A stretch of DNA of 19,203 bases from an uncultured archaeon. Lineage in GTDB: Archaea; Asgardarchaeota; Lokiarchaeia; Sigyniarchaeales; SOKP01. Shown here piece after piece: positions 2 through 17,705 of the stretch (position 1 is its first letter; the number at the start of each line of letters is the position of its first letter). The stretch covers positions 5,735 through 24,937 of the forward strand of contig CAYLZE010000043.1 in NCBI GenBank assembly GCA_964388035.1. Direction: 5' to 3'. The notes below the pieces were generated by a model. The model saw nothing but the letters and a program-made list of their open reading frames with translations. It searched no databases and was not told where the DNA came from. The position numbers and the translations under genes were made by a program.

Positions 2-1126
2 AGATGGGTTAATACCAATAAAATCCCGATTAAAAATGATAAAGGAGAAGTCTACCAAATTCTGGATGTATCAATGGATATCACGGAGTTAAAGCTGTTT
101 GAAAATAAAATCAAGGATCTCGCCAAATTTCCCGAAGAAAATCCTTTTCCCGTAATGAGAATTGATGAAGAAAAAATATTATATGCTAATAATCCAGCTA
201 AAAAAATGCTCAACCTCCAAGAGGAAAAAAGGATACCCCCATTTCTTAATTCAATGTTGAAAGAAGTTAAAATCTCCAAATCTTTGCAGAGATACGAACA
301 GGAAATAAACAATCGGTATTTATCAATCATTATTGCACCGATTGAAGGAGAGTCTTATTATAATATCTATTGCATGGACATTACAAAAAGAAAGTTAGCT
401 GAAAAAAAATTAACTGAATTCATTTCGAATATTTCCCACGAAATCAAGACCCCATTAACCGCCATAATGCAATCGATTGAAAACTTAAAAAGGTTTGAAG
501 ATTCCTTAACAGTGGAGCAGAAAAAAGATCTCTACGACACCATAAATCAAAATTTAATAAATACATCTGAAATTATTCAAGATTTACTTCTTAGATCTTA
601 TTTAGATGAGAAAAAAATAAAATTAAATTTCGATCTATTTAAAGTGGATGACCTAGTTAAATCGGCCGTTAAATCACTAGCACCTCAAATTAAGATCAAA
701 AATATTGATCTCACTTGTGAAATTGGAAAAGATTTAATAATTCGAGGTGATTATAAAAGAATTGAGCAAGTTTTGCGAATTATTCTGAGTAATGCCGTAA
801 AATACACTAAGAATAGAGGTTCTGTTAAAATAGAAGCCCATGATTATGTTGAAGATTCCTTAAACGTAGGGATATCTGATGGAACCTTGATAAGAATAAC
901 GGATGATGGAATCGGGATTGATAATGAAGATTTATCCCATCTCTTTGAAAGGTATTTTAGAGGGAAAAATGTAAAACAGGTCAGCGGAACGGGGTTAGGA
1001 TTGCCCATTGCGAAAGAATTAATGGAACTTCACAGTAGTAAAATTCATGTAGAAAGTGAGATCGGAAAAGGTTCCTCATTTTCCTTGATCTTTCCAAATA
1101 TTAACCTAAAAGAAAAATATAAATAA
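2..1126 (+). CDS. PAS-domain sensor histidine kinase (PAC-PAS-HisKA-HATPase_c), 5'-truncated by the window edge
   Basis: The frame is open from base 2 (RWVNTNKIPIKNDKGEVYQILDVSMDITELK, a PAC-type motif), so ATG 74 is internal. PAS-like FPEENPFPVMRIDEEKILYANNPA; H box SHEIKTPL; N box ILSNAVKY; G1 DDGIGI; F box LFERYFR; G2 GTGLGL. No TM segment in the visible part. Confidence 0.95.
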   Translation, partial: RWVNTNKIPIKNDKGEVYQILDVSMDITELKLFENKIKDLAKFPEENPFPVMRIDEEKILYANNPAKKMLNLQEEKRIPPFLNSMLKEVKISKSLQRYEQEINNRYLSIIIAPIEGESYYNIYCMDITKRKLAEKKLTEFISNISHEIKTPLTAIMQSIENLKRFEDSLTVEQKKDLYDTINQNLINTSEIIQDLLLRSYLDEKKIKLNFDLFKVDDLVKSAVKSLAPQIKIKNIDLTCEIGKDLIIRGDYKRIEQVLRIILSNAVKYTKNRGSVKIEAHDYVEDSLNVGISDGTLIRITDDGIGIDNEDLSHLFERYFRGKNVKQVSGTGLGLPIAKELMELHSSKIHVESEIGKGSSFSLIFPNINLKEKYK

Positions 1127-1170
1127 GTAGCAATTACTATATTTAAGAAAATCGGTAGTGAAATAATCTT

Positions 1171-1180
1171 ATTTAAGTAG
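1171..1180 (+). promoter_or_regulatory. Candidate archaeal TATA box for response regulator 1
   Basis: ATTTAAGTAG 83 nt before ATG 1254; nearly the same 10-mer (ATTTAAATAG) lies 69 and 72 nt before the starts at 2285 and 4778. AT-rich background limits confidence. Confidence 0.35.
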
Positions 1181-1253
1181 AAGATTATTATTTATATTAT
1201 ATTTTTTTATTTTATGGTATTCACAAGCTCATTTACAGAAAGGGATAAAAAAA

Positions 1254-2132
1254 ATGCACCATTCTTTAATTCTTGTCGTTGAAGATAATATGGATATCTT
1301 GAAGAATCTGAAGATTACGCTGGAATCCTCCAATTATAATGTGATTACAGCATTGGGTGCGGAAAAAGCTTTAAAAGAACTTTCTACGATGGATAAGGTT
1401 CCAGATTTAATTTTGAGCGATATTATGATGCCGGTCATAGATGGATATGAATTTTTTTTAAAGATTTCTTCTAATCCTACATGGAATTCCATTCCCTTTA
1501 TTTTTCTTTCAGCAAAAAGTTCCCCAGATGATGTTAGGTTAGGTAAGTTATTGGGAGCTGATGATTATATTACTAAGCCGTTTCAGATGGAAGATTTACT
1601 AGCGGTAATAAAAGGTAAAATACGGCGTAATGAACATGCCAAATTAATAAATAATGAGCTTAATAAATCTTCCATATTAACATCTCTTAAAAAAGCGTCG
1701 AAAAGTGAACCAAAAAAGTTAGATATCCTTTTGTTCATTGTATATTGGGATGAAGAATATGGTCCTACTTTGAAAGATTATTGTCCTAAGGATGTAATAG
1801 ATAAACCAACTATCGAAAAGATTAGCGAAGAAGTATTTAATAGTTCCCGCTTGATTTTTAATGATAACACAAAATTGAAAGGAGAAACTATTTTATTGGA
1901 CATGCATTATTTAAAAAAAAGGGGATACCTCTTCTTTGATTCTTATCCGGATGACACTAAAAATGCTAAGGAGTTCCCATATATGATTGGAGTCATCTCT
2001 CCTTCCATCACATACCTTCAATCCTTATCCATAAAAAAAGTATTGAATAACCTTTCAATGTGCGTAAAAAGAGAAGAAAAAAACAATATAAGTTATTTTT
2101 GGCAAAATATTGTAAACATTCTCTTAGAATAG
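1254..2132 (+). CDS. Response regulator: N-terminal receiver (REC) + C-terminal putative longin/u-DENN-like domain (paralog 1)
   Basis: REC motifs VVEDN, LSDIMMP (phospho-acceptor D56), FLSAK, KPF. C-terminal part starts LFIVYWDEEYGPTLKDYCP and has a longin-like strand/helix order. REC call is firm; the longin call is by-eye inference. Confidence 0.9.
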   Translation: MHHSLILVVEDNMDILKNLKITLESSNYNVITALGAEKALKELSTMDKVPDLILSDIMMPVIDGYEFFLKISSNPTWNSIPFIFLSAKSSPDDVRLGKLLGADDYITKPFQMEDLLAVIKGKIRRNEHAKLINNELNKSSILTSLKKASKSEPKKLDILLFIVYWDEEYGPTLKDYCPKDVIDKPTIEKISEEVFNSSRLIFNDNTKLKGETILLDMHYLKKRGYLFFDSYPDDTKNAKEFPYMIGVISPSITYLQSLSIKKVLNNLSMCVKREEKNNISYFWQNIVNILLE

Positions 2133-2215
2133 GACACCACCAGTCACTTCTTTTGAAGAGAAATTTTAATATTACTGTGACATTTAAATTACATGTATTT
2201 AGATAAAAAATAAAT

Positions 2216-2225
2216 ATTTAAATAG
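2216..2225 (+). promoter_or_regulatory. Candidate archaeal TATA box for response regulator 2
   Basis: ATTTAAATAG preceded by an A-rich BRE-like stretch, 69 nt before ATG 2285; identical 10-mer at 4706-4715. Confidence 0.4.
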
Positions 2226-2284
2226 AAAGTCAAATTTCCTTAAAAATTGATTTTTTAATTATAAAGGTTTTCTTTAATTAAAAT

Positions 2285-3193
2285 ATGTTATCTGAGACAA
2301 CTAAGGAAAATAATTTAATATTAGTAGTGGATGATGATCCTCTCATTTTAGAAAGTGTCTCAATAATGTTAGAACTGAATAATTTCCGTGTCATTACGGC
2401 AAAAAATGGGGAACGCGCAATTGAAAAACTCTTAAAATTAGAAAGTCCCCCTGATATAATCTTGAGCGATATATGCATGCCTGGAATGGATGGGTATCAA
2501 TTCTTCATGAATGTAATGAAAAATCCTCAGTGGAGTCAAATACCCTTTATTTTTTTAACCGGACTCTCCTCTCCGAAAGAAATACGATTCGCTAAAAGCA
2601 TGGGGGTGGATGATTATATCACTAAACCTTTTAAAGAAAATGACCTATTAGCTATTATTATAGGAAAACTCACTCGAAAAAGTAGATCTCTCCAGGTAGA
2701 AAATACAATTAAAATTAATCATCTGAACTTTGAACGAGAAATTACTTTAAATATTAAAAATCAAATGGATGTTATTTTGATTTTCTACATATGGGATGAT
2801 GCTGATGGACCATTATTGGATAAATCTTATCCCGAAGATCTTCCAAATAAAAGTAAAATTGAAAAGTTAGGAGCACATTTATTCCATTCCTCGCGTCTAA
2901 TTTATGGAGAAAATCCGATTAATGAAGCCGAGGATCTCTTACTTAGAATGAATTCTATCCAAAAAGATTGTTTTATCTATTTCGATTACATCCCCGATGC
3001 ACAAACAAGGGCAAAAAAAAAAGAATACATGATTGCCTTGATTGCCCCAACTATTACATATTATCATACATTTGAAATTCAAAAATTATTTAAAGAACTC
3101 TCTGCTGAAATCAAGAATAAGAGCAATATTAAACTAAAACGATATTGGGATAATTGCATGGTAATTTTAAGTACGTCGAAATGGAGTGAATAA
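2285..3193 (+). CDS. Response regulator: N-terminal receiver (REC) + C-terminal putative longin/u-DENN-like domain (paralog 2)
   Basis: REC motifs VVDDD, LSDICMP (D62), FLTG, KPF. C-terminal LIFYIWDDADGPLLDKSYP ... FDYIPDAQTRAKKKEYMIALIAP is collinear with paralog 1. Confidence 0.9.
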   Translation: MLSETTKENNLILVVDDDPLILESVSIMLELNNFRVITAKNGERAIEKLLKLESPPDIILSDICMPGMDGYQFFMNVMKNPQWSQIPFIFLTGLSSPKEIRFAKSMGVDDYITKPFKENDLLAIIIGKLTRKSRSLQVENTIKINHLNFEREITLNIKNQMDVILIFYIWDDADGPLLDKSYPEDLPNKSKIEKLGAHLFHSSRLIYGENPINEAEDLLLRMNSIQKDCFIYFDYIPDAQTRAKKKEYMIALIAPTITYYHTFEIQKLFKELSAEIKNKSNIKLKRYWDNCMVILSTSKWSE

Positions 3194-4777: not shown

Positions 4778-5803
4778 ATGATCGTCATTTCTTCTCCAAA
4801 TGGATTAATCGGGATTAAAAAATCTATTGAAATATTAAAAAAGGGAGGTTCAGCCATGGATGCTGTTGAAGCAGGGATTCGATTGGTAGAATCAAACCCC
4901 ATTGACCATAGCGTGGGCTTTGGTGGGTTTCCAAATATTCGGGGTGAAGTGGAGCTCGATGCAGGAATAATGGACGGTAAATCATTGAATGCAGGAGCTG
5001 TTGGAGCCATGAAAGAATTTAAACACCCGATTTCCGTCGCAAGAAAGATCATAGACCTTTTACCTCATGTATTTCTCGTGGGCGCTGGTGCAGAACATTT
5101 TGCAGATCAAATGGGTTTTAAAAAATCAAAATTGCTCACTCCCGAAATTCAGAAATTCTGGGAACTGCGTTTGAGAGCAGAATCACCCGATATCGATTTA
5201 AAAAAATTAAAAAAATAACCAGACTTGTGGAAACTCACGGAAATCGGAACAGATCCCGAAAAAACTGCTCAATGGATGGTTCAAAAATCCTCGGAGGATC
5301 CTAACTTTAAAAAATTAGTGGAAGATTTTAATAAATTATGGATGATAACCGGGACGGTTAATTTTCTTGCCCAAGATAAGGAAGGAAATATTTGTGCTGG
5401 AACAAGCACGAGTGGATGGGCGGGAAAATACCCCGGTAGATTAGGGGATTCTCCAATAATTGGGGCGGGTTTGTACGCAGATAATCGTTATGGAGCAGCG
5501 GCTTGTACTGGCATGGGGGAGATGGCGATACGAGCTAGCACTGCACGTAGCGTTATTTTTTATCTTAAAATGGGTTATTCCTTATTGGATGCGGGACGGC
5601 AAGCAATGATCGATCTAAATGATTTAGAAGGTCGTTATTTAAGCCGCATGAATATTGTCATGATGGACAAAGATGGGAATCCTGCTGCCTTCAGTAATGA
5701 TAAAAATCAAAAATATATTTACATTACAGAAAAAATGAGTGAACCTAACATAGAAACTCGCATTCATGTTCCAACAAAAATGCAATGGAACAAAAATAAT
5801 TAA
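4778..5803 (+). pseudogene. Ntn-hydrolase type-2 asparaginase (glycosylasparaginase / isoaspartyl peptidase family) interrupted by one in-frame TAA at 5216-5218
   Basis: ORFs 4778-5218 and 5225-5803 are in the same frame (...DLKKLKK*PDLWKL...). N-part: AMDAVEAG, SVGFGGFPN, ELDAGIMDG, HPISVAR. C-part: G|TVNF nucleophile Thr (5354-5356), TSTSG, PGRLGDSPIIGAG, CTGMGE. Family call is firm; pseudogene vs functional split vs sequencing error is unresolved. Confidence 0.8.
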
Positions 5804-5969: not shown

Positions 5970-6860
5970 ATGGAAGGGTCATTTTATCTTTTAGGTGTTT
6001 CTTTAGCAATAATAAGCGGGATCGTGAATAATTTGGGCTCTGTTTTTCAGAAAAAGGTAGTAAATGATTTGCCTGGTGAAGCCAAATTTTTCAGGAGTTT
6101 AATTAAAAACCCGCTTTGGCTCTTTGGATTAATAATGCAAAACGGAATTGGTGCGATCTTTTTCATGATAGCTCAATTATATATTGGACCGGCGCTCATT
6201 CCCGGCCTAATGGCTTTTGGCTTGATCTTTTTAGCTATCGGCTCAGTAAAAATAGTGGGAGAATCGTTAAAAAAAGAGGAAATTTCAGGCATCATTATAA
6301 TGGTGGTTGCAATTTTCTTATTGGGCCTCTCAGAATTAAGTATAGATATTACGGGTATAGACATGCTCCAAGGAATGTTGATTTTTAATATGACCGTTTT
6401 TACAGTAAGTCTATATGGTGGGACTTTACTCTGCGAAATTCTTCAAAGGAAGAGCGCAAGATTTAAGGGAATTTTACTGTCCATCTCTTCAGGTTTTCAA
6501 TTTTCGTTAACTAACTTTTGGGTAGCCCCCATGATGGCCTTCTTTGCCGCAGTTTTTACTGGTAATGCGAGTTTGGGCGGGATAATTCTTTTTATTGTAA
6601 CCGCCGTGATTTTAGTCGTTTCAAGTATAATCGGAATGGCAGAAATTAACCAAGCATTTCAAGTGGCAAATGCCAGCCGAATGATTCCAATACAACAAGT
6701 TCCCATTCAAATCACGCCCATTCTCGTATATTTCTTGGTTTTTTCATTATTAGCCCCCAGTATCATGTCTTCCTTTTTGGTGGTAATTTCAGTGACATTT
6801 ATAATTATCAGTTCCTTCTTGCTGGCTAAACGGCAAGCACAATTAGAAGCAATTAAATAG
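5970..6860 (+). CDS. DMT-superfamily membrane transporter, NIPA/Mg2+-transporter-like (paralog 1)
   Basis: About 9 hydrophobic segments; LAI.SG..NNLG.VFQKK, LIKNPLWLFGL, GPALIPGL, VGESL..EEI.G, NQAFQ..NAS.MIPI match the NIPA-type DMT pattern. Substrate cannot be determined. Confidence 0.8.
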   Translation: MEGSFYLLGVSLAIISGIVNNLGSVFQKKVVNDLPGEAKFFRSLIKNPLWLFGLIMQNGIGAIFFMIAQLYIGPALIPGLMAFGLIFLAIGSVKIVGESLKKEEISGIIIMVVAIFLLGLSELSIDITGIDMLQGMLIFNMTVFTVSLYGGTLLCEILQRKSARFKGILLSISSGFQFSLTNFWVAPMMAFFAAVFTGNASLGGIILFIVTAVILVVSSIIGMAEINQAFQVANASRMIPIQQVPIQITPILVYFLVFSLLAPSIMSSFLVVISVTFIIISSFLLAKRQAQLEAIK

Positions 6861-8529: not shown

Positions 8530-9420
8530 ATGGAAGGATCATTCTACATTTTAGGAGTTTTTTTAGCAATAACAAGCGGAAGCATTAATAACCTGGGCTC
8601 CGTGTTTCAGAAGAAAGTAGTAAATGAAGTACCCAAAGAAGCTAAATTTTTCAGGAGCTTAGTGAAAAAACCACTTTGGATTACGGGATTGATCATGCAA
8701 CTCGGCATTGGGTCCATCTTTTTCATGATTGCGCAATTATTCATCGGGCCGGCAATAATACCTGGGTTAATGGCTTTTGGCTTGATCTTCTTGGCAATCG
8801 GGTCAGTTAAAATAGTGGGAGAATCATTAAAGAAAGAAGAGATAATGGGCATTATTCTCATGATCATTGCAATTTTCCTCTTAGGGCTTTCAGGATTGAG
8901 AATTGATATTACTACTATCGAAATGCTTCAATTAACGACAATCATTAACATGGTCATTTTTACACTAAGTCTCTACTCAGGATCTATACTCTGTGAAATC
9001 TTCCAAAGAAGAAGTGAAAGATTTAAAGGTATCTTATTGGCAGTCTCGTCAGGATGCCAAGTATCGATAAATAACTTCTGGATAGCCCCTTTAATGGCGT
9101 TTTTTGTTGCCGTGTTTACTGGTACTGCGAGTTTGGGTGGCACAATCCTTTTTATTGTTAATTGCGGAATATTAATTACTTCCAGCATGCTTGGAATAGC
9201 AAAGTTACAGCAAGCGTTTCAAGTGGCAAATGCCAGCCGAATGATCCCAATACAACAAGTTCCCATTCAAATCACGCCTATTTTTGTTTATTTCTTGGTT
9301 TTTTCGTTAGTTGCGCCTAGCATTTTCTCTACAATCTACATGATGATCGCTATAATGTTCATACTCATGAGCTCATTTTTATTAGCTAAACGTCAAGCAC
9401 AATTAGAAGCAATTAAGTAG
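8530..9420 (+). CDS. DMT-superfamily membrane transporter, NIPA-like (paralog 2)
   Basis: Same length (296 aa) and ungapped alignment to 5970-6860; about 72 differences by hand count (~76% identity). Confidence 0.8.
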   Translation: MEGSFYILGVFLAITSGSINNLGSVFQKKVVNEVPKEAKFFRSLVKKPLWITGLIMQLGIGSIFFMIAQLFIGPAIIPGLMAFGLIFLAIGSVKIVGESLKKEEIMGIILMIIAIFLLGLSGLRIDITTIEMLQLTTIINMVIFTLSLYSGSILCEIFQRRSERFKGILLAVSSGCQVSINNFWIAPLMAFFVAVFTGTASLGGTILFIVNCGILITSSMLGIAKLQQAFQVANASRMIPIQQVPIQITPIFVYFLVFSLVAPSIFSTIYMMIAIMFILMSSFLLAKRQAQLEAIK

Positions 9421-12987: not shown

Positions 12988-15000
12988 ATGGAAAATAAGG
13001 AGGAGGACCAAAAAAGTGTAAAAACAGAGGAATTAAAAGAAGTTCAAAATAAAGATAGGCTCCTTTCCAATTACATGCTCTTTATTATTCCAAGTTGGGG
13101 GAATCTATTGGGACATCCAACTAATGGACGATATGTGGGACAGGAAGTGGATAAAATATCATCCGATATTGTTTTCTTTTTCGCTTCTAATGAGCTCTCC
13201 ATTAAAACAGACAAGGGTGTAATTTATTGCTTATTTGGCTTGGGAAACTACTATACTAAATTTGAATTACAACAAGATGTGGAAATATCCCGTGGTAAAT
13301 ATATTATAGATGAAAAATTGTTGACAGGCATCGTTTTATCTGATTTCGTCTATGATCATCTTGCTTCTTCTAAGAATTTGATCTTAGAGGATGATCCCGA
13401 TGTTATTATTGCAGAAAAAGTTATTAAAATCCCGGTAGATTTATCAGATAAAACAGAAGGACAAATGACTTTCATCAAAGGAGCATTAATGAGAAATGTC
13501 TTCATCCCATACAAGGAAGTCATTCTTAAAATGCTAGATATGATTAATAAAACGGATAGCTATAATATTGATAGAACAGGACACATGCTACTTAGTGGAC
13601 ATGGGGCTTATTTTGATAAAATTCTCGTTTCAGAAGGAAAAAAATCCAATTTACAAGAAGAATACATGAATAGTACAGCGGGAATTCTGGAAATAATCCC
13701 GGGTGCAGATAAATTATTAACTAGTTTATTAACTCCGGTAGAGTTTCAAAAGATTAAATCAGGATTATCGACTCTCAAGGCGATTTATTCCAATCTTAAA
13801 TTTGATCGTTCTTACTTTTATTCGATGTTGGAAGCTATCGCGCAAAAAATACCACCTGAAGCACTTCCACAAATTTCATTAAAAAGCTCACCTCTTGCCA
13901 TCAAACAAACTATACTCTACTCGGCAGAAGATCGAATTAATTCATATTTAGAATGGCCTAATGAATTTCCTAGAAAGGAAAAAGAAACAGAAAAGGTAAA
14001 ACCTACTTATATCTATCCCGAAATGATCTCTGGAACAAATGTAGCTAATTCAACGACAATTAAAGAGTATGATACCATTAAAGAACATGAGGAATTACCT
14101 AAAGAAGATCAATTTGTATTAAGGATTGATAAATCAGAGAAAGTAGAAAAGCGGGTACTTCCAGCCACCCCTTTAGGAGAAGATATTGAAAAGATTTTTC
14201 TTTATCTTAAACATGTAATTGAGGAAGATTATGATATGTCTTCAGTCGGGACAGCTTTTGGTTTAGCTCGGGATAGTCTTCCTCCAACTTTTAAGATTGA
14301 AAATCCACGATATGCTTGGGAAATGAGTAAAATAGAGAACCTTTATATTAAAAAATCAGATAACTTGGGATTACCTGCCAAAGAAAAAGAAGAGATTTTA
14401 GAAAAAATAAATAGCTGGTTACATTTAATCGAAGAAGAAAAAAGGAAAAAGCAAGAAGAATTAGAAGCAGAAAGAAGATGGATTGAGGCAGAACAAAAAC
14501 GATTAGAAGAAGAAAGGTTAGAAAAAGAAAGATTAAAGAAAGAACATCAAGAAAGAGAAAGGTTGGCTCAAGAAAAACTTAGATTGGAAGAAGAAAGAAT
14601 AGAAAGAGAAAAATTAGAAAAGATTCGCTTGCAAAAAGAGCAGGTGAAAAAGCAAAGAGAATTAGAACAAATTGAGGCGCAAGAACAAGAAAGAATTAGA
14701 AAAGAGCAAGAGGAACTTGATAGAGCTAAAAAGGAGCAAGAAAAGCTTGAAAAGGAAAGAGAAGTGAGAGAACAAGAAATATTAGAAAAGGCCAAGCGAG
14801 AACAGGAAGAACTTGAAAAAGAGAAAGCTAAATTAAAAGAAATTAAAGCAGAGCGGAAGAGACAAGAAAAACTCTTAAAAAAGAAGAAAAAAGAAGAAAA
14901 AAAGAGAGAAAAGGAGCGATTGAAAATTGAGAAACAAAAAGCCAAAGAAAAAGAGAAGTTAGAAAAAATTTCTAAAGAACTTAAATCTAGTGATTCTTAG
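12988..15000 (+). CDS. Hypothetical protein: globular N-domain, linker, small helical domain, ~185-aa E/R/K-rich helical tail
   Basis: 670-aa ORF; SD-like AGGTGA at 12978-12983; residues ~482-667 almost entirely E/K/R/Q/L/I. No family recognised. Confidence 0.85.
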   Translation: MENKEEDQKSVKTEELKEVQNKDRLLSNYMLFIIPSWGNLLGHPTNGRYVGQEVDKISSDIVFFFASNELSIKTDKGVIYCLFGLGNYYTKFELQQDVEISRGKYIIDEKLLTGIVLSDFVYDHLASSKNLILEDDPDVIIAEKVIKIPVDLSDKTEGQMTFIKGALMRNVFIPYKEVILKMLDMINKTDSYNIDRTGHMLLSGHGAYFDKILVSEGKKSNLQEEYMNSTAGILEIIPGADKLLTSLLTPVEFQKIKSGLSTLKAIYSNLKFDRSYFYSMLEAIAQKIPPEALPQISLKSSPLAIKQTILYSAEDRINSYLEWPNEFPRKEKETEKVKPTYIYPEMISGTNVANSTTIKEYDTIKEHEELPKEDQFVLRIDKSEKVEKRVLPATPLGEDIEKIFLYLKHVIEEDYDMSSVGTAFGLARDSLPPTFKIENPRYAWEMSKIENLYIKKSDNLGLPAKEKEEILEKINSWLHLIEEEKRKKQEELEAERRWIEAEQKRLEEERLEKERLKKEHQERERLAQEKLRLEEERIEREKLEKIRLQKEQVKKQRELEQIEAQEQERIRKEQEELDRAKKEQEKLEKEREVREQEILEKAKREQEELEKEKAKLKEIKAERKRQEKLLKKKKKEEKKREKERLKIEKQKAKEKEKLEKISKELKSSDS

Positions 15001-16724: not shown

Positions 16725-17705
16725 TTGATTGTCAACGAGATCAATATTAAGCTGGTATTGTTCGGACTAGGAGGTATTGGAAAAACTTCCATCGTTAATA
16801 GCTTCTTGGAGCAGCAGATTTCCAAGAAATACTATCCAACGATTGGTTCAAGCATTTCTAAACATGAATATAGGTTGCCCAAATTTATTGTTAAATTGAA
16901 CGTGTGGGACGTTGGTGGCCAGCGCTCATTCAATCCATTGAATCCCGTTTATTTTAATAATAATGATGCCGCGTTTTTAATTTTTGATTTATCTAATCCC
17001 CAAGAATCGCTAAAAGAAATAAAAGAGGTGTATTTGCCAAGTCTGATTGAAAAATCGGAGGATTGCATCTCTTATATTATCGGAAATAAATTAGATTTAA
17101 TAAAGACTGATGATGAATTAAAGCAAATTACGGAAGAATTAAGATTTCCAAATCTCCCTCTTGTTTATGTATCCGCATTAGAAAATAACAATATAAATGA
17201 AGTATTCGAATTAATCATTTTTCATTTTTTACAAGATTTGGAAGTCAAATCTCCTTCAAAAAAGTTTTCAGGGATTTCTGAAGGTTTTTTAAATTACATT
17301 GGCAAGAAAGAAGAGGAGTTATCCCGAGTATTAATAAATAAAATTGATACTAAGACATTAAGATTAGAAGATTTGATAATGCCAGATATAGAAACTACCG
17401 TCCTTCCTACATCCGATATTAATATCGCCAGCATTCCTTATCCAAAACCTATTACTGGGGATCTTAAAAATATTGAGCGCATCATAGAAGAACTTATTGA
17501 ATATAACACAGAGCTATTAAGTGATGTGAAGGATAAAATTTTGCAATTAAAAAAAACGCCCATTGATCAATTAAACCTACAAATCGATAAAATTTCCCTT
17601 GATCTTGACACGTTAAAAATGAACTTGGAGAAAGAAATAGAGGAAATGCTTAAATTTAAAGGTCCTGAAACTGATAAAAAAACTGATAAAATTACATTGA
17701 AGTAG
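16725..17705 (+). CDS. Ras-superfamily (Rab-like) small GTPase with ~150-aa C-terminal extension ending in a helical hairpin
   Basis: G1 GLGGIGKTS, G2 YYPTIG, G3 WDVGGQ, G4 NKLD, G5 VSAL. No C-terminal Cys/CAAX. Confidence 0.93.
   Translation: MIVNEINIKLVLFGLGGIGKTSIVNSFLEQQISKKYYPTIGSSISKHEYRLPKFIVKLNVWDVGGQRSFNPLNPVYFNNNDAAFLIFDLSNPQESLKEIKEVYLPSLIEKSEDCISYIIGNKLDLIKTDDELKQITEELRFPNLPLVYVSALENNNINEVFELIIFHFLQDLEVKSPSKKFSGISEGFLNYIGKKEEELSRVLINKIDTKTLRLEDLIMPDIETTVLPTSDINIASIPYPKPITGDLKNIERIIEELIEYNTELLSDVKDKILQLKKTPIDQLNLQIDKISLDLDTLKMNLEKEIEEMLKFKGPETDKKTDKITLK

Follow-up and report, generated by a model that had tools for sequence, protein, structure and literature searches.

A conserved Asgard signalling cassette joins receiver-longin response regulators to a Rag/Arf-like GTPase gene: a candidate phosphorylation-gated GTPase regulator

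The stretch of DNA analysed here (hereafter the window) comprises 19,203 nucleotides (nt) of contig CAYLZE010000043.1 (C43) from the assembly GCA_964388035.1 of an uncultured Asgard archaeon (Lokiarchaeia, Sigyniarchaeales), and it opens with the 3′ part of a histidine kinase gene followed by two response regulator genes, RR1 and RR2 (Table 1). Positions 2 to 3193 hold the downstream half of a signalling cassette that is conserved among Asgard archaea; ahead of the window, the same contig has genes for an ArsR-type winged helix-turn-helix (wHTH) protein, a Rag/Arf-like small GTPase, KaiB, KaiC and the remainder of the kinase. The kinase gene is cut by a scaffold gap of 100 N (C43:5635-5734) directly before window base 1. 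The flanks of the gap share a 9-nt repeat (aagatgggt), and collapsing this overlap joins them in one frame to give an uninterrupted kinase of 607 amino acids (aa); thus, the 5′-open kinase of the window is an assembly artefact. The PAS-PAS histidine kinase of this locus is cytosolic. A profile search of the genome placed one Gtr1/RagA match at C43:2291-2773, some 3 kb ahead of the window, and another near the receiver-longin (REC-longin) gene of contig C96, where a second, paralogous locus encodes, on a single strand, ArsR, a GTPase (176 aa), a MASE3-PAS-kinase (858 aa) and a REC-longin protein (320 aa). A scan for bacterial sigma-70 promoters and terminators, which uses a bacterial consensus not applicable to archaea, gave results at or below the shuffle expectation.

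Both response regulators have receiver domains (Pfam Response_reg, aa 6-119 of RR1, E = 1e-23; aa 12-125 of RR2, E = 2e-25) in which the expected residues are intact (E10-D11, D56, S86 and K108 in RR1; D16-D17, D62, T92 and K114 in RR2). The two proteins are 40% identical across their full length (E = 2e-76) and have in common a C-terminal domain of about 145 aa, for which no Pfam match was found when the window proteins were scanned. A first-pass annotation, made from the nucleotide sequence, had described a PAS kinase followed by two intact receiver proteins (D56, D62) and had quoted a motif at W165 (WDEEYGP) and W170 (WDDADGP) in the C-terminal domains; the open reading frames (ORFs), the Pfam matches and the residue check agree with that description, and both motifs were found as quoted.

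A word-indexed homolog search retrieved nothing beyond the protein itself and a 99% copy. An exhaustive profile search yielded 173 cluster representatives at E ≤ 1e-3, of which 111 were found at E ≤ 1e-10; thus, the shared domain is not a chance feature. The majority of the family are REC-plus-domain proteins of about 295 aa, and the minority forms are hybrid kinase-REC-domain proteins (618 and 821 aa) and proteins in which the domain is N-terminal and joined to TPR repeats (about 310 and 680 aa). In public records the members, from metagenome-assembled genomes of Lokiarchaeota/Promethearchaeota, are named 'response regulator', 'CheY-like' or 'Regulator of RpoS', and the output domain is unannotated. 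The domain was present in 94 of 301 sampled genomes of the phylum, with a concentration in the taxonomic family to which the archaeon belongs (60 of 68 genomes) and in one other family (all 21 genomes). In the genome analysed here, two tandem ORFs of about 695 aa (contig C80:18524-21042) open with the same longin domain, and relatives of this type (P0125, P0152) have TPR repeats after it, so that the domain also occurs outside two-component proteins.

An AlphaFold2 (AF2) model of RR1 aa 147-292, built from the 116-row family alignment, has a pLDDT of 92.2 and a pTM of 0.87 (a single-sequence model of full-length RR1 reached a pLDDT of only 34). The order of its elements (strands 13-20 and 24-31, helix 38-56, strands 65-71, 76-86 and 94-103, helices 108-126 and 133-145) is that of the longin fold, b1-b2-a1-b3-b4-b5-a2(-a3), with a five-stranded antiparallel sheet. 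In a Foldseek search against the PDB, significant matches to solved longin domains extended over the whole domain. Chains of GATOR1 ranked first (9v0j_A, E = 8e-6; we take this chain to be NPRL2), followed by a Lokiarchaeal longin (8yqg), the yeast SEA complex, DENND10, FLCN-FNIP2, DENND1, Lst4 and C9orf72-SMCR8. The ESM-Atlas neighbours were Asgard clusters with partial Folliculin or NPR2 labels (Pfam), an Asgard cluster joining this fold with Arf/Ras GTPase domains, and eukaryotic SMCR8 and C9orf72. Sequence searches of the PDB, with the single domain or with the 116-row profile, returned nothing meaningful. The first-pass annotation had proposed a longin (u-DENN) output domain like those of FLCN, SMCR8, C9orf72 and NPRL2, had given its order of strands and helices, and had named a structure search as a check; the predicted fold is that of a longin, with the named proteins or their partners as best matches, and the predicted bb-a-bbb-a-a order agrees with the one proposed. 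The term u-DENN holds only in the sense of a longin fold because RR1 and RR2 lack a DENN domain: Pfam found none after the longin, and both proteins end 0-5 residues past the last longin helix.

Topology and scores led us to reject two other folds, namely Roadblock/LC7 (MglB-like, a-b-b-a-b-b-b, without C-terminal helices) and a PAS/GAF-like fold. A few chains with LOV/PAS or other sensor domains come far down among the Foldseek matches (ranks 24-48), as might be expected if the C-terminal domain were a small-molecule-binding alpha/beta sensor of the PAS, GAF or profilin type that merely resembles a longin; with the GATOR1, FLCN-FNIP2 and C9orf72-SMCR8 chains ranked above them, we regard a sensor as very improbable.

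Across the 116-sequence alignment, the hairpin that follows the first strand of the longin domain is strongly conserved (numbering of RR1: W165, 110/116; D166, 87/116; G170, 109/116; P171, 107/116), as is the nearby P178 (101/116). The GP pair lies at the junction of the loop with beta2 (G170-P171 in RR1, G175-P176 in RR2), as in longins of GTPase-activating proteins (GAPs), and a WD pair stands four to five residues ahead of it (W165-D166 and W170-D171, respectively). According to a 2025 survey (PMC12290439), the GP motif is specific to C9orf72, SMCR8, FLCN and NPRL2 and is absent from FNIP2, NPRL3, DENND, TRAPP and adaptin longins; the C9orf72 hairpin is W33-D34...G38-P39, and the W-D-x3-G-P spacing of the RR1/RR2 family is identical to it. 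GAP activity toward ARF1 requires W33/D34 of C9orf72 and R147 of SMCR8 (PMC8213707). In the beta4-beta5 loop, the column occupied by N237 in RR1 contains arginine in 82 of the 116 sequences (71%), among them RR2 (R242); of the locus copies examined, only 4 lack the arginine. RR1, with asparagine at this column, does not by itself have the candidate arginine finger.

The GTPase encoded ahead of the kinase (P0154) and its 63 aligned homologs are invariant in G1 (GKT/S), in the PT of switch I, in WDFGGQ and in H-K-x-D; in Rag/Gtr GTPases, G4 has this HKxD form. In Pfam, P0154 scores slightly better against Gtr1_RagA (4e-23) than against Arf (2e-19); NCBI names its relatives 'ADP-ribosylation factor-like', and it lacks a C-terminal roadblock domain. 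A complex with GTP was predicted for the longins of RR2 and RR1 and the G domain of the GTPase, with an alignment as input for each of the three. The ipSAE was 0.79 (runs 0.71, 0.81 and 0.79) compared to 0.00 for all three controls; the mark applied to this score is passed by 58 of 80 solved complexes and by 2 of 110 mismatched pairs. At least 89% of the contacts were common between runs, and the partner pLDDT was 86. The confident interface consists of W170-P176, alpha1 residues and R242-A243 of RR2, W165-P171 and alpha1 residues of RR1, and, on the GTPase, D36 and N37 of the P-loop, residues 59-67 of switch I (T62 among them) and Q85-Y88 and E91 of switch II. A similar arrangement, with the GTPase on two longins, has been described for C9orf72-SMCR8-ARF1 (PMC8213707). 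The prediction supports likeness and compatibility, not binding.

Longins that contact a GTPase in this manner could also act as a guanine nucleotide exchange factor (GEF) or platform, like the longins of DENN, Mon1-Ccz1 or TRAPP; or they could read the state of the GTPase, as its effector or sensor, and signal back to the receiver. We consider these roles unlikely, given that the GP motif is reported to be confined to the GAP group and absent from DENND and TRAPP longins (PMC12290439), and that the frequent arginine (82/116) falls in the predicted interface, beside the P-loop and the switch regions.

To place the genes in context, 20 further loci were mapped with 9-kb flanks, in addition to the loci fetched previously. 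In 25 of the 29 surveyed loci, the kinase gene is directly upstream of the REC-longin gene, on the same strand. The colinear string ArsR-GTPase-kinase-REC-longin is found at both loci of the genome analysed here (C43 and C96) and in 11 further genomes, with a twelfth in which a contig end breaks the same order, and it spans at least five genera; variants of the string, from 4 more genomes, are given in Table 1. Two loci (L045, L050) had no GTPase gene within the mapped flanks. A second family (f24) shows another arrangement: at locus L042:1035-4850 (genome G130), a REC-longin gene is followed by a gene for a Gtr1/RagA-like GTPase of 462 aa, with an N-terminal extension of about 140 aa, and then by a PAS kinase gene, with gaps of 9-12 nt; in two more genomes, the ortholog of this GTPase adjoins the longin gene or is one gene away. 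The cassette GTPase is the likely target of the REC-longin proteins. The proposal of the first-pass annotation that a phosphorelay is linked to a small-GTPase module gains support from the conserved Rag/Arf-like GTPase gene in the string and from the passing complex prediction.

The same survey bears on the possibility that the longin is a general dimerisation or protein-binding output, for TPR, SNARE-like or other partners, and that the adjacency of the GTPase gene reflects only co-regulation by ArsR. Such a role would accommodate the joining of the same domain to TPR repeats and the two loci without a nearby GTPase gene, and, with 30 Gtr1/RagA-type matches in the genome, some chance adjacency is expected. 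It is nevertheless improbable in our judgement: the GTPase ortholog keeps its position across five or more genera and at both paralogous loci of the genome analysed here, the complex prediction passes with controls at zero, and the structural neighbours include Asgard proteins that combine the longin fold with Arf/Ras GTPase domains.

Loci L040 and L041 share the f24 arrangement of a REC-longin and a Gtr1/RagA-like GTPase gene; at L041, a Ras-family GTPase gene additionally lies between the two, on the opposite strand. Locus L011:2-2538 (genome G144) encodes, on one strand, a kinase, a stand-alone receiver (125 aa), a REC-longin protein and a Ras-family GTPase of 179 aa; this is a second, non-orthologous GTPase linkage. 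Among the mapped loci, no conserved downstream partner of the REC-longin gene is common to the family: there is an HSP20 gene in one genus, a convergent gene for a pyridoxal phosphate (PLP) enzyme in another and an epimerase gene here. In the former genus (g2), the HSP20 gene (about 107-121 aa) lies 130-180 nt downstream of the REC-longin gene, on the same strand, at ten loci.

The motifs, the gene context and the predicted complex together lead us to favour, with somewhat more confidence than doubt, the interpretation that the REC-longin pair regulates, under the control of phosphorylation and probably as a GAP, the Rag/Arf-like GTPase encoded with it. Under this scheme, the kinase would phosphorylate D56 of RR1 and D62 of RR2, and the phosphorylated receivers would alter the pairing or exposure of the longin domains. 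In the predicted complex, the two WDxxxGP hairpins and the alpha1 helices of the longin pair cup the GTPase at its switch regions, and R242 of RR2 would serve as the arginine finger, the motifs suggesting a phosphorylation-gated GAP like FLCN-FNIP, NPRL2-NPRL3 or SMCR8-C9orf72. Because RR1 lacks this arginine, the pair at this locus would share the asymmetry of the eukaryotic complexes. The output of a GAP-type pair acting on the GTPase would be the nucleotide state of the GTPase and not transcription; more speculatively, the ArsR protein may provide transcriptional feedback.

Several observations weigh against this scheme. Among longin domains, GEF platforms are commoner than GAPs. We tentatively liken R242 to R164 of FLCN, R78 of NPRL2 and R147 of SMCR8 by loop position and by the predicted interface, not by residue superposition. 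RR1 and RR2 have no match to Pfam NPR2 (PF06218) or Folliculin (PF11704) at E ≤ 1, and the 116 family members match no Pfam family at threshold, with weak Folliculin matches in 3 of 116 (best E = 0.0016); the relationship to NPR2/Folliculin is visible at the level of fold and motif only. The geometry of the predicted complex matches that of C9orf72-SMCR8-ARF1, so that its score may be recall of solved complexes (7MGE/8DHB-like), and the use of our own alignments and of GTP as a ligand departs from the calibration of that score. The surveyed genomes are related, and the locus counts are thus not independent samples. Most cassettes contain a single REC-longin gene; a heterodimer is, therefore, not the general form. 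Finally, at the C43 locus, the genes for KaiB and KaiC intervene between those for the GTPase and the kinase. KaiB was found in only 7 of the 71 family genomes and not in a same-genus genome, and in two genomes (G135 and G186) it is on contigs other than that of the cassette; KaiB-KaiC is, therefore, a lineage-specific insertion and not a general part of the cassette. By analogy with cyanobacterial SasA/CikA, its placement hints at an input from KaiC to the kinase.

The pairing of an arginine-bearing longin (RR2) with an arginine-less one (RR1) in tandem, as well as the KaiB-KaiC insertion, are features particular to the C43 locus. The tandem pairs of genomes G214 and G265 have arginine in both copies. 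The second copy of the G305 pair, on the downstream side, reads WN..GA and has lost the loop, and one copy in G186 has glutamine at the arginine column. In a maximum-likelihood tree, the G186 copy clusters with arginine-bearing copies of its own genus (99/96, 98/78), away from RR1; RR1, RR2 and the G305 pair are on long, poorly resolved branches, and the branching position of RR1 and RR2 is a polytomy. Because the G186 copy groups apart from RR1, the sequences suggest that the arginine was probably lost more than once (glutamine in G186, loop deletion in G305, asparagine here). A more specific scenario, in which RR1 and RR2 became, after tandem duplication, an obligate asymmetric heterodimer, with R242 as the sole finger and RR1 contributing its hairpin only, acting as a phosphorylation-gated GAP for the Rag-like GTPase under a PAS kinase fed timing or energy information by KaiB-KaiC, appears to us conceivable and rather doubtful. 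If true, the asymmetric RR1-RR2 pair would be an archaeal counterpart to the one-finger asymmetry seen in FLCN-FNIP, NPRL2-NPRL3 and SMCR8-C9orf72, either evolved independently or its forerunner; the Arg/Asn tandem pair is a natural experiment on the origin of that asymmetry.

The first-pass annotation had left open whether this architecture had been reported. It had: the available part of Liu et al. 2020 (bioRxiv 10.1101/2020.10.19.343400; Fig. 5c) reports an NPRL2-like longin fused to two-component domains in Asgard archaea, so that the REC-longin architecture is already published, and proposes growth control through prokaryotic two-component systems with 'eukaryotic' regulators. The phylum and the order, a receiver (or a hybrid kinase plus receiver) followed by an NPRL2/FLCN-type longin, are the same, and we infer that the RR1/RR2 family is one of these fusions. 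The GTPase partner, the ArsR-GTPase-kinase-REC-longin string, the analysis of the WD, GP and Arg positions and the arginine-less tandem paralog have no counterpart in that part of the text. Asgard FLCN/SMCR8-type longins with a GP motif and an arginine finger have been described, with the question raised whether their clients are ArfR or Rag/Gtr (PMC12290439, section 2.6); these are stand-alone or DENN-linked longins, mainly of Heimdallarchaeia, presented with no mention of a receiver, response regulator or CheY and no gene-order partner. In MK-D1, GTPase genes are generally outside operons with longins, which hampers the matching of partners (Tran et al., PMC10933270). A full-text literature search of incomplete coverage found no paper on a link between an Asgard longin and a histidine kinase or, in Asgard archaea, between a two-component system, a small GTPase and a receiver domain; the ArsR-GTPase-kinase-REC-longin cassette may thus be unpublished.

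Compared to the eukaryotic GAP complexes (SMCR8-C9orf72 for ARF, FLCN-FNIP for RagC/D and GATOR1 NPRL2-NPRL3 for RagA/B), the RR1/RR2 system has the same longin fold, GP before beta2, an arginine loop beside the hairpin, one longin with and one without the arginine, a likely client of the Rag/Arf type and, as predicted, a GTPase on two longins. It differs in having no DENN domain, no WDR41, DEPDC5 or Ragulator partner, proposed control by His-Asp phosphorylation and a likely client that lacks the roadblock domain found at the C-terminus of Rag; the longin follows the receiver here, whereas it is N-terminal in the eukaryotic proteins, and the system is known from sequence and models. Each chain has the WD hairpin and usually the arginine, so that a homodimer could suffice in the REC-longin family. 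The system of Myxococcus, with MglA, the Roadblock-type GAP MglB and the receiver-containing polarity factor RomR, is different, in that MglB has the Roadblock topology and does not itself supply an arginine finger, and the receiver is on a separate protein; the match to it is far weaker than to longins.

Longin-containing GAPs for Rag and Arf (GATOR1, folliculin, C9orf72-SMCR8) underlie nutrient and membrane signalling in eukaryotes, and their origin and minimal mechanism are debated. Asgard genomes are rich in longins and small GTPases, and the cassette brings a particular GTPase together with its one or two presumed longin regulators and with the kinase expected to switch them. It is a testable candidate forerunner of eukaryotic GTPase off-switches and, if the scheme is true, would represent a class of response-regulator outputs that act on a G protein instead of DNA. 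The cassette proteins are small and soluble, which makes the hypotheses on the arginine finger and on the WD/GP motifs accessible to in vitro work.

Table 1 Genes, domains, motifs and loci of the REC-longin cassette (window or contig coordinates; loci by their identifiers).
Feature	Coordinates or loci	Strand	Evidence
ArsR-type wHTH, 114 aa	C43:1813-2157	+	
Bare Rag/Arf-like small GTPase (P0154), 198 aa	C43:2207-2803	+	
KaiB, 86 aa	C43:3023-3283	+	E 4e-15
KaiC, 492 aa	C43:3296-4774	+	E 9e-108
PAS-PAS ORF, 272 aa	C43:4928-5746	+	PAS_4 and PAS_9
Full kinase gene, PAS-PAS-HisKA-HATPase_c, 607 aa when joined	C43:4928-6860	+	
5′-open histidine kinase, 3′ part	window 2..1126	+	Pfam HisKA E 2e-12, HATPase_c E 7e-26, weak PAS matches
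RR1 (P0002), 292 aa, receiver and C-terminal longin without the conserved Arg	window 1254..2132; C43:6988-7866	+	ORF list, Response_reg, family profile
RR1 longin domain, aa 150-292, bb-a-bbb-a-a	window 1701..2129	+	AF2, Foldseek and VIA matches to solved longins
RR1 hairpin W165-D-E-E-Y-G-P171 (C9orf72-type)	window 1746..1766	+	column conservation, predicted GTPase interface
RR1 N237, beta4-beta5 loop, Arg column	window 1962..1964	+	family alignment
RR2 (P0003), 302 aa, receiver and C-terminal longin with the conserved Arg	window 2285..3193; C43:8019-8927	+	ORF list, Response_reg, family profile
RR2 longin domain, aa 155-302	window 2747..3190	+	aligned with RR1 across the entire domain
RR2 hairpin W170-D-D-A-D-G-P176	window 2792..2812	+	column conservation, predicted GTPase interface
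RR2 R242, candidate arginine finger, beta4-beta5 loop	window 3008..3010	+	Arg column, predicted interface
Colinear full string	L048, L049, L052, L054-L058, L060, L062, L063		
Same order, broken by contig end (twelfth genome)	L053		
ArsR-GTPase-REC-longin, no kinase	L037, L038		
GTPase divergently transcribed	L046, L047		
HSP20-flanked loci	L013, L014, L016, L019-L021, L027, L030-L032		

Elsewhere in the window, a Pfam scan at E ≤ 0.001-0.01 found no match for three ORFs (5970-6860, 296 aa; 8530-9420, 296 aa; 12988-15000, 670 aa). An Asparaginase_2 (Ntn-hydrolase) gene at 4778-5803 is split by a stop codon into an ORF of 146 aa, which covers positions 31-153 of the profile, and one of 192 aa, which covers positions 172-302. 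A Ras/Arf-family GTPase of 326 aa (Ras E = 2e-26) is encoded at 16725-17705, 13.5 kb downstream of the REC-longin genes; it is distinct from the cassette GTPase and not adjacent to the REC-longin genes. The segment 14001-15000 shows a strong purine skew (GC skew 0.34, AT skew 0.42).

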